From: a phage
NCBI GenBank assembly: GCA_036930585.1
Contig: GCA_036930585.1_3066.1
Length of the DNA stretch: 64,000 nucleotides
Strand: one strand, 5' to 3'
A program made the position numbers and the translations under genes. Below the pieces are notes generated by a model. The model saw nothing but the letters and a program-made list of their open reading frames with translations. It was not told the DNA's origin and did no database searches. Positions 48,232-48,543 of this stretch are shown here, in pieces; the stretch's first letter is position 1, and each line of letters starts with the position of its first letter.

Positions 48232-48342
48232 TATATTCTCTCATTTATTGCAGCAAAAAACGAATTATATAATTCTTCATCATATGTATTTGATAGTAAT
48301 ACTAACACGTTTTGCGATAAATATTAATTTAAAGGAGGACAT

Positions 48343-48543
48343 ATGGCACAAAAATTAATGGCACTTGTTAATGCCATCAAAGGTAATAAAAAACGTATAG
48401 CTTTTACTATTTCTGCTATGATAGGAATTTTACTTTGGAATTTTGTTTTATCGCCAGTTGCTATTGCTCATGGTGTTAGTATTCCAGTAGTTACTCTTGA
48501 TACATTCGTAGATCTAGCATTTGCTTTAGTTGGGTTAATTTAA
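48343..48543 (+). CDS. Small membrane protein (66 aa), opposite orientation to flanking early genes
   Basis: AAAGGAGG SD 6 nt before ATG; two hydrophobic segments; stop overlaps gene 61 stop. Confidence 0.5.
   Translation: MAQKLMALVNAIKGNKKRIAFTISAMIGILLWNFVLSPVAIAHGVSIPVVTLDTFVDLAFALVGLI

Follow-up and report, generated by a model that had tools for sequence, protein, structure and literature searches.

A small conserved gene with late-type signals, antisense to the early genes between dam and gene 61 of T-even phages, probably encodes a single-span membrane protein

Results

A 66-codon open reading frame lies between dam and gene 61

We analysed a 64,000-nucleotide (nt) stretch of phage DNA (contig GCA_036930585.1_3066.1; the whole stretch is called the window hereafter) that derives from a Tequatrovirus, and we focused on a small plus-strand open reading frame (ORF) located between two minus-strand genes, dam, encoding a DNA adenine methyltransferase, and 61, encoding the DNA primase. 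The initial annotation had described at this site an ORF of 66 amino acids (aa) with a strong Shine-Dalgarno site, antisense to the surrounding early genes, and this description was borne out (Table 1) except for the spacing: the GGAGG core is separated from the ATG by 4 nt (ACAT) in the window, and the 6 nt originally given are found in T4. The motif AAAGGAGG occurs just twice on the plus strand of the window, the other copy preceding the holin gene t. As also described initially, the ORF converges on gene 61, and its TAA stop (48541-48543) shares two bases with the minus-strand stop of gene 61 (48540-48542) within the tetranucleotide TTAA. At the base composition of the window, the probability that 66 codons remain open is about 0.011. 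In the list of window ORFs, no minus-strand ORF of at least 30 aa covers the same stretch.

In T4, which has the arrangement seen in the window, the ends of dam (17625) and gene 61 (17935) are separated by 309 bp, in which neither NC_000866 nor AF158101 annotates anything. T4 nevertheless carries the same ORF (NC_000866 17738..17938), with a product 92% identical to that of the window. The 2.2 kb surrounding the ORF are 98-99% identical to many Tequatrovirus genomes, including U115, ES19, ACG-C40 and Pinarejo.

The gene belongs to a widespread T-even family under purifying selection

A profile search (hidden Markov model) matched the small protein over its full length to phrog_2024 (E 8.9e-31, residues 3-66 against profile positions 2-65 of 65), a family of unknown function and its sole match in PHROG. 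Searching with tblastn, we found this form of the protein, referred to as type A, in 693 phage records; about 500 are from Tequatrovirus at 80% identity or more, and the other 190, including Mosigvirus and Gaprivervirus, fall below 60%. Profile searching further revealed a paralogous subfamily, type B, only 20-23% identical to the window protein and present by tblastn in 136 records, from Gaprivervirus, Dhakavirus (JS98), Klebsiella phages (Potts1, Marfa), Kanagawavirus, Moonvirus and others. Both types stand in tandem in the Gaprivervirus phage VR26 (L018 in our set of loci), with one copy each at 2495-2692 and 2701-2901, 8 nt apart, as diverged paralogs; the second of these copies is of type B, the sole form in JS98, the Klebsiella phages and Q7622. 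Kosakonia 305, PEi26 and Moon encode a version further removed, with about 35% identity to type B. Profile searches confined the family to T4-like contigs, and neither these nor tblastn detected a member outside the enterobacterial Tevenvirinae. In a library of cluster representatives only a handful of clusters were real matches, all of them short T4-like proteins; the long repeat proteins P0034, P0038 and P0039 that this search also returned were rejected as artefacts of composition and repeats.

The initial annotation had named lack of conservation in related phages as the observation that would speak against the gene; the ORF turned out to be strongly conserved. Pairwise comparison by the Nei-Gojobori method gave a ratio of non-synonymous to synonymous divergence (dN/dS) of 0.15 for the window against T4 (9 synonymous and 5 non-synonymous changes), 0.10 for L015 against HX01 (11 and 4) and 0.09 for Potts1 against Marfa (22.5 and 11.5), the range over close pairs being 0.09-0.25. 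Between genera, synonymous sites are saturated, yet the proteins remain 48-68% identical.

Gene order tells the same story. At every locus examined, covering at least nine Tevenvirinae genera, the small gene lies opposite the early-gene strand, in convergent orientation with the 3' end of gene 61. What stands on its other side differs: T4 has dam there, U115 has dam together with a phrog_8706 ORF, Mosigvirus and JS98 have gene 56 with nothing in between, and other loci have MazG-like genes or a homing endonuclease. The small ORF is kept even where dam is absent or replaced, as in Mosigvirus, JS98, Potts1, Kanagawavirus and Moon. Low dN/dS, protein identity maintained despite saturated synonymous sites, wide distribution and fixed synteny with gene 61 together lead us to hold the gene real. 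On this comparative evidence, the small ORF is a genuine protein-coding gene under purifying selection that is conserved across T-even phages.

The slot between the small ORF and gene 56 is hypervariable in T4-like phages (47408-48342 in the window, 2494-3992 in L001, and also in L017, L020, L022 and L025-L029). In some phages it is empty; in others it holds dam alone, dam with a 186-aa phrog_8706 ORF, genes for MazG-like pyrophosphohydrolases, a homing endonuclease or a 252-aa phrog_4675 ORF. The small gene is a fixed edge of this slot, and gene 61 is fixed too.

Late-type expression signals precede the gene

A late-promoter-like ATAAATA had been noted about 25 nt upstream of the ORF. Its first A indeed lies 26 nt before the ATG, with 19 nt between its last A and the ATG, the usual distance for a T4 late promoter. 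Of 14 promoter-bearing loci, 12 have an (N)ATAAATA box 15-22 nt ahead of the start codon. In the window, the octamer GATAAATA matches the consensus TATAAATA (positions -13 to -6) at seven of eight positions, the lone mismatch being at -13, and T4 and U115 share this octamer. The box reads AATAAATA in Mosigvirus, the metagenomic locus L004 and JS98, and CATAAATA in VR26 and PEi26, while four loci, Potts1, Marfa, Kosakonia 305 and Q7622, carry a perfect TATAAATA (in Q7622 the gap from box to start is about 20 nt if the start at MGTIFYQ is taken). The second VR26 copy, starting 8 nt after the first, lacks a separate box. Among the 50 T4 late sites listed by Geiduschek and Kassavetis, 32 are perfect and 9 have A at -13, the commonest variant, the rest being single deviations (PMC2988020); Nolan et al. 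found position -13 to be poorly conserved in other T4-like phages (PMC1524935).

Sequences upstream of the gene cannot be aligned between genera, yet the box is kept. In U115, homology to the window begins only about 7 nt upstream of the box, a breakpoint that fits a promoter needing no -35 element, and we found no convincing sigma-70-type promoter upstream of the ORF on the plus strand. A GGAGG-type Shine-Dalgarno site is likewise kept across the homologous loci of all lineages. ORF, ribosome-binding site and promoter box are thus all conserved across genera, which is more than chance.

Within the window, ATAAATA occurs nine times on the plus strand. In four cases, a ribosome-binding site and the ATG of an ORF at least 30 codons long come within the 40 nt after the box. 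The four ORFs are one of 1290 aa, taken as gene 34 from its length, a gp36-like tail-fibre gene, the holin gene t and the small ORF. The closest match to the signals of the small ORF is gene t, which is also on the plus strand behind a late box that varies at -13 and has essentially the same layout (Table 1). Judging from these signals, the small ORF probably belongs to the late gene class, with a predicted transcript start at about 48329-48331.

The product is probably a single-pass membrane protein with an invariant core

Two hydrophobic segments had originally been noted in the protein. The first stands as a probable membrane span: residues 19-42 form a strongly hydrophobic stretch (Kyte-Doolittle mean over 19 residues of up to 2.0). 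The second probably does not. Residues 45-66 are only weakly hydrophobic and hold D53 and D57, AlphaFold modelled this segment as a 12-residue helix, and relatives have a polar C-terminal segment (for example EHLRTAATLMLGF), among them the homologs from Kanagawavirus and Moonvirus (for example VTIEHLRTAATLMLGF), all of which makes a second membrane span unlikely. The AlphaFold2 model, computed from an alignment of 28 sequences, reached a predicted local distance difference test (pLDDT) score of 81, with helices at 2-12, 16-42 and 52-63, a loop at 43-51 and a block of pLDDT 86-89 across residues 21-50. Five Lys or Arg residues precede the span and the only charged residues after it are acidic, which by the positive-inside rule would place the N-terminus inside and the C-terminus outside; the basic N-terminus is kept in all subfamilies. 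From sequence and model together, the protein is probably single-pass with its N-terminus in the cytoplasm.

Conservation is sharply concentrated. W32, N33, P38 and G44 are invariant, A40, P48, V50 and G64 nearly so, and position 53 is always D or E. In the predicted topology, this core, W32-N33...P38...G44...P48.V50..D/E53, would extend over the outer half of the span and the periplasmic loop next to the membrane. Within a membrane span, an invariant Asn classically drives helix-helix association.

The family is catalogued but resembles no characterised protein

The family is already catalogued, as phrog_2024 and as 'hypothetical protein', and is not a new kind of system. Annotated members from Tequatrovirus, Mosigvirus and Gaprivervirus (RB68_032, a hypothetical protein among the RB phages; HX01 D299_gp163; VR26 gp031) share the length of 65-66 aa, the position and the orientation next to gene 61; nothing of substance distinguishes the window ORF, which is a member. 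U115_032, annotated as 'putative transmembrane protein', also belongs to the family. The exact protein sequence of the window is already in NCBI as a hypothetical protein, and the more recent T4 record OZ209023.1 likewise has a hypothetical protein annotated at the site; ACP30675.1 and ACP30950.1 are further entries that we take to be hypothetical-protein annotations in RB phages. By contrast, the gene is missing from the records of reference T4 (NC_000866, AF158101), JS98 (EF469154), VR7, IME08 and PEi26.

Searches beyond PHROG gave little. The small protein had no match in Pfam or NCBIfam at E up to 10, and none among the defence and anti-defence families of PADLOC at the same cutoff. A sequence search of the PDB returned noise only (E > 0.7) and a fold search of the PDB returned zero matches, while a fold search of BFVD returned only a family member, automatically labelled 'Holin', and a distant Enterobacter phage protein. 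There is no paralog in the window, since the family profile, run against all window ORFs, matched the small ORF alone and everything else at E > 0.4. A full-text literature search found nothing on the small ORF. Membership among spanins or lipoproteins with a lipobox was rejected, as neither the window protein nor most of its relatives contain Cys.

Other features of the locus

Three further features touch the small ORF or its neighbours. A 36-aa ORF with a TTG start (48248-48358, plus strand) overlaps the promoter and start of the 66-aa gene and is a coding sequence in the annotation of phage Pinarejo. We rejected it as a gene: it is not kept in U115-type genomes, in which the sequence is replaced, and it is probably spurious. 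On the minus strand, codons 5-13 of the small ORF contain a terminator-like hairpin at 48355-48380 (11 pairs with an AACA loop, then TTTTTGTG). It comes about 160 nt after the gene 61 stop, and transcripts of gene 61 may end at it before they reach dam; the relation of the hairpin to the small ORF is uncertain, and it is absent from the Mosigvirus, L004 and L007 sequences. Lastly, the 3' end of gene 61 contains, on the plus strand, a 14-bp stem (48579-48592 / 48618-48631) that closes a 25-nt loop and has no U-tract after it; the 156-nt fold around this stem has a z-score of -3.0.

In dam, a homopolymer at 47546-47550 has 5 A (minus strand) in the window, compared with 6 in T4 and U115 and 7 in Pinarejo. 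The run of 5 shifts the frame of the last ~34 codons and gives a product of 267 aa with an unrelated C-terminus, versus 259 aa in T4. The cause is either an error in sequencing the homopolymer or a genuine difference, with Dam having a variant C-terminus or being inactivated.

Table 1 Coordinates of the small gene, its signals and protein segments, and the genes compared with it in the window
Feature	Position	Strand	Details
Small ORF, coding sequence	48343..48543	+	ATG start, 66 aa, TAA stop; sequence MAQKLMALVNAIKGNKKRIAFTISAMIGILLWNFVLSPVAIAHGVSIPVVTLDTFVDLAFALVGLI
Shine-Dalgarno site AAAGGAGG	48331-48338	+	4 nt spacer to ATG
Late-promoter box GATAAATA	48316..48323	+	G at -13; consensus TATAAATA; ATAAATA at 48317-48323
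Residues 1-18	48343..48396	+	N-terminal amphipathic helix and basic cluster KGNKKR; predicted cytoplasmic
Residues 19-42	48397..48468	+	predicted membrane span; invariant W32, N33, P38, near-invariant A40
Residues 43-66	48469..48540	+	predicted periplasmic tail; invariant G44, near-invariant P48, V50; short amphipathic helix 52-63
Gene 61 (DNA primase)	48540..49571	-	phrog_47, E 1e-105; convergent neighbour
dam (DNA adenine methyltransferase)	47428..48231	-	phrog_56, E 3e-67; upstream neighbour, outside the conserved unit
Holin gene t	21597-22279	+	Pfam Phage_holin_T, E 1.5e-116; A(-13) box AATAAATA, 18 nt to ATG, ribosome-binding site AAAAGGAGGG
imm	56947..57198	-	exclusion gene, early strand; Imm (PF14373)
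sp	50732..51025	-	exclusion gene, early strand; Spackle (PF25676)

Discussion

A probable late modulator in the inner membrane

Taken as a whole, we consider it likely that this is a conserved late T-even gene for a small single-pass transmembrane modulator. Late in infection, RNA polymerase with gp55 and gp33, loaded by the gp45 clamp, would start about 12-14 nt before the ATG and give an mRNA with a short leader, as for the holin gene t. The 66-aa product would then insert in the inner membrane, with the basic N-terminal helix in the cytoplasm, a single span at about residues 19-42 and, on the periplasmic side, an acidic tail of 24 residues. There, during assembly or lysis in the late phase, it might associate with itself or contact the span or juxtamembrane part of an envelope protein of phage or host, acting through the WN...P...G...P.V..D/E interface. 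The invariant core with an Asn in the span makes a small transmembrane modulator the most likely mode of action. Bacterial small transmembrane regulators of the MgrB, AcrZ and MgtS type, which have fewer than 70 aa, a single span and conserved residues in or next to it, offer a functional analogy, with no sequence relation expected.

Several points weigh against this proposal. No classical r (rapid-lysis) mutant class is known to map between dam and 61, which argues against an essential role in lysis inhibition. The protein shows no similarity to any characterised family. The sequence A40-I41-A42 after P38 could be a signal-peptidase site. As to transcription, Moon has only TATTAAATA and the metagenomic lineage L007 has no box at the usual position, and we detected no plus-strand intrinsic terminator within about 4.5 kb after the small ORF. 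Finally, the review of Geiduschek and Kassavetis describes the in vivo strengths of variant late promoters as unknown and does not specifically name G at -13 among the variants (PMC2988020).

Alternative functions

The exclusion or lysis-timing role suggested in the initial annotation is speculation. Lysis timing is nevertheless our leading guess for a specific function, albeit a tentative and rather doubtful one. In this scenario the protein would modulate holin T, the antiholin RI or the spanins, or would form a viroporin-like oligomer that leaks proton-motive force, and so set the time of holin triggering. The late-promoter layout shared with gene t and the small size of the single-span protein, with its invariant Asn in the span, favour such a role, as does at face value the 'Holin' label of one UniProt family entry. 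However, that label is automatic and unreviewed, and every other source name that we saw was 'hypothetical protein'. Membership among holins or pinholins was rejected. The protein matches no holin family in Pfam, NCBIfam or PHROG at E up to 10. Its C-terminus (...DLAFALVGLI) contains no basic residue after R18 and thus lacks the highly charged hydrophilic C-terminal domain of holins. The gene is in no lysis cassette either, its neighbours being dam and the primase gene; it is not near t, rI, rIII or the spanin genes, with t about 27 kb away in the window and rI about 41 kb away on the reference T4 map. Class II holins and pinholins such as S68 of phage 21 are similar in size (about 65-70 aa), hydrophobic and late, as the small protein is predicted to be, but the latter has no charged C-terminal cytoplasmic tail, probably has one span rather than two and is not encoded next to an endolysin. 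T4 holin T is, like the small protein in its predicted topology, N-in/C-out with a single span; it has 218 aa with a large periplasmic domain, and the comparison of the family profile with the window ORFs revealed no sequence similarity between the two.

A weak resemblance to RI also speaks for a lysis role but did not extend to other family members. At E 0.008, BLASTP aligned 20 residues of the Tequatrovirus span, comprising FVLSP and then a small-x-small pattern, with the signal-anchor-release (SAR) domain of RI, and 0.4% of shuffled sequences scored as high. The same shuffle test gave non-significant values of 0.11, 0.25 and 1.0 for Mosigvirus, Gaprivervirus and type B members, and hhalign comparison with the family profile returned a probability of only 0.07. 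We therefore rejected homology to RI and treat the match as chance or as shared signal-peptide-like composition. The small protein also differs from RI in having no globular periplasmic domain and in carrying an 18-residue basic N-terminal extension that RI lacks.

A processed periplasmic peptide appears unlikely. Residues 1-42 would here serve as a long signal peptide or SAR-type anchor, and cleavage or release after A40-I41-A42 would yield an active, acidic amphipathic peptide of 24 residues, HGVSIPVVTLDTFVDLAFALVGLI. The basic n-region, hydrophobic core, P38 at -5 and small residues at -3 and -1 would suit such a precursor, position 40 being A in 90% of weighted sequences and position 42 A, T or S throughout the family, and the highly conserved G44, P48, V50 and D/E53 all follow the putative site. 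Yet the hydrophobic core of 19-24 residues is longer than in typical cleaved signal peptides, and AlphaFold predicts one continuous helix over 16-42. The N-terminal 18 residues are conserved within subfamilies (AIKGNKK), which a mere signal peptide would not need, and W32 and N33 are invariant inside the supposed signal peptide.

It is distinctly unlikely that the gene encodes an assembly or virion factor, that is, a late membrane protein that aids membrane-bound prohead or baseplate initiation, or one packaged with the virion that assists passage of DNA across the inner membrane in the next round of infection. The late expression signal is shared with structural genes, morphogenetic genes are similarly conserved across Tevenvirinae, and a product of this kind would be invisible to proteomics based on the reference T4 annotation. 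Against this, the gene stands outside any structural gene cluster, its product has no similarity to known head or tail proteins, and the tblastn and profile searches placed it in enterobacterial Tevenvirinae only.

Still harder to sustain, and in our view highly unlikely, is a function in superinfection exclusion or against a membrane-linked host defence, by which the protein would keep secondary phage DNA out of the cell or inhibit an inner-membrane abortive-infection effector. Its small size and predicted inner-membrane location agree with this, as does its place at the edge of a hypervariable accessory slot that holds dam, a MazG-like gene or homing endonucleases; the gene itself, however, is a fixed element beside that slot and is not variable. 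The initial annotation had appealed to opposite-strand small membrane genes as being often exclusion or lysis-timing factors, a generalisation that for exclusion fails in the window: imm and sp lie on the early minus strand, whereas the small ORF is on the plus strand behind a late-type box, and its product shows no similarity to PF14373 or PF25676, so membership in the Imm or Sp families was rejected. A late promoter would also be poor timing for exclusion, and PADLOC gave no match.

Finally, we regard as extremely unlikely a function at the RNA or DNA level only, with the ORF incidental to a late antisense RNA against gene 61 or to a terminator or promoter region between 61 and dam: a late plus-strand transcript would indeed run antisense into gene 61, as no plus-strand terminator follows, a terminator-like minus-strand hairpin lies within the ORF and T4 transcribes both strands at some sites (PMC2988020), but dN/dS values of 0.09-0.25, with amino acids kept while synonymous changes are saturated, contradict it, as do a strong Shine-Dalgarno site conserved in all lineages and a hairpin not conserved outside Tequatrovirus, and an antisense effect could coexist with the protein but cannot explain the conservation.

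Implications for T4 and its relatives

T4 is a reference phage, and many omics studies use the AF158101 or NC_000866 annotation. Because this annotation omits the gene, analyses that depend on it would miss the product. Adding the gene to the T4 annotation would be an easy correction. The locus is worth recording for its late-type gene antisense within the early region, for a sharply conserved membrane-interface motif and for its omission from several reference genomes. There is also a rather small chance that the gene specifies an overlooked late envelope component of T-even phages, acting through the invariant core. It could, for example, partner holin T, RI or the spanins in the membrane and so adjust the lysis clock or lysis inhibition, or it could be a small pore-former. 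If this were true, the omission of its gene from the reference annotation would explain why T4 genetics and proteomics have missed such a component for decades.

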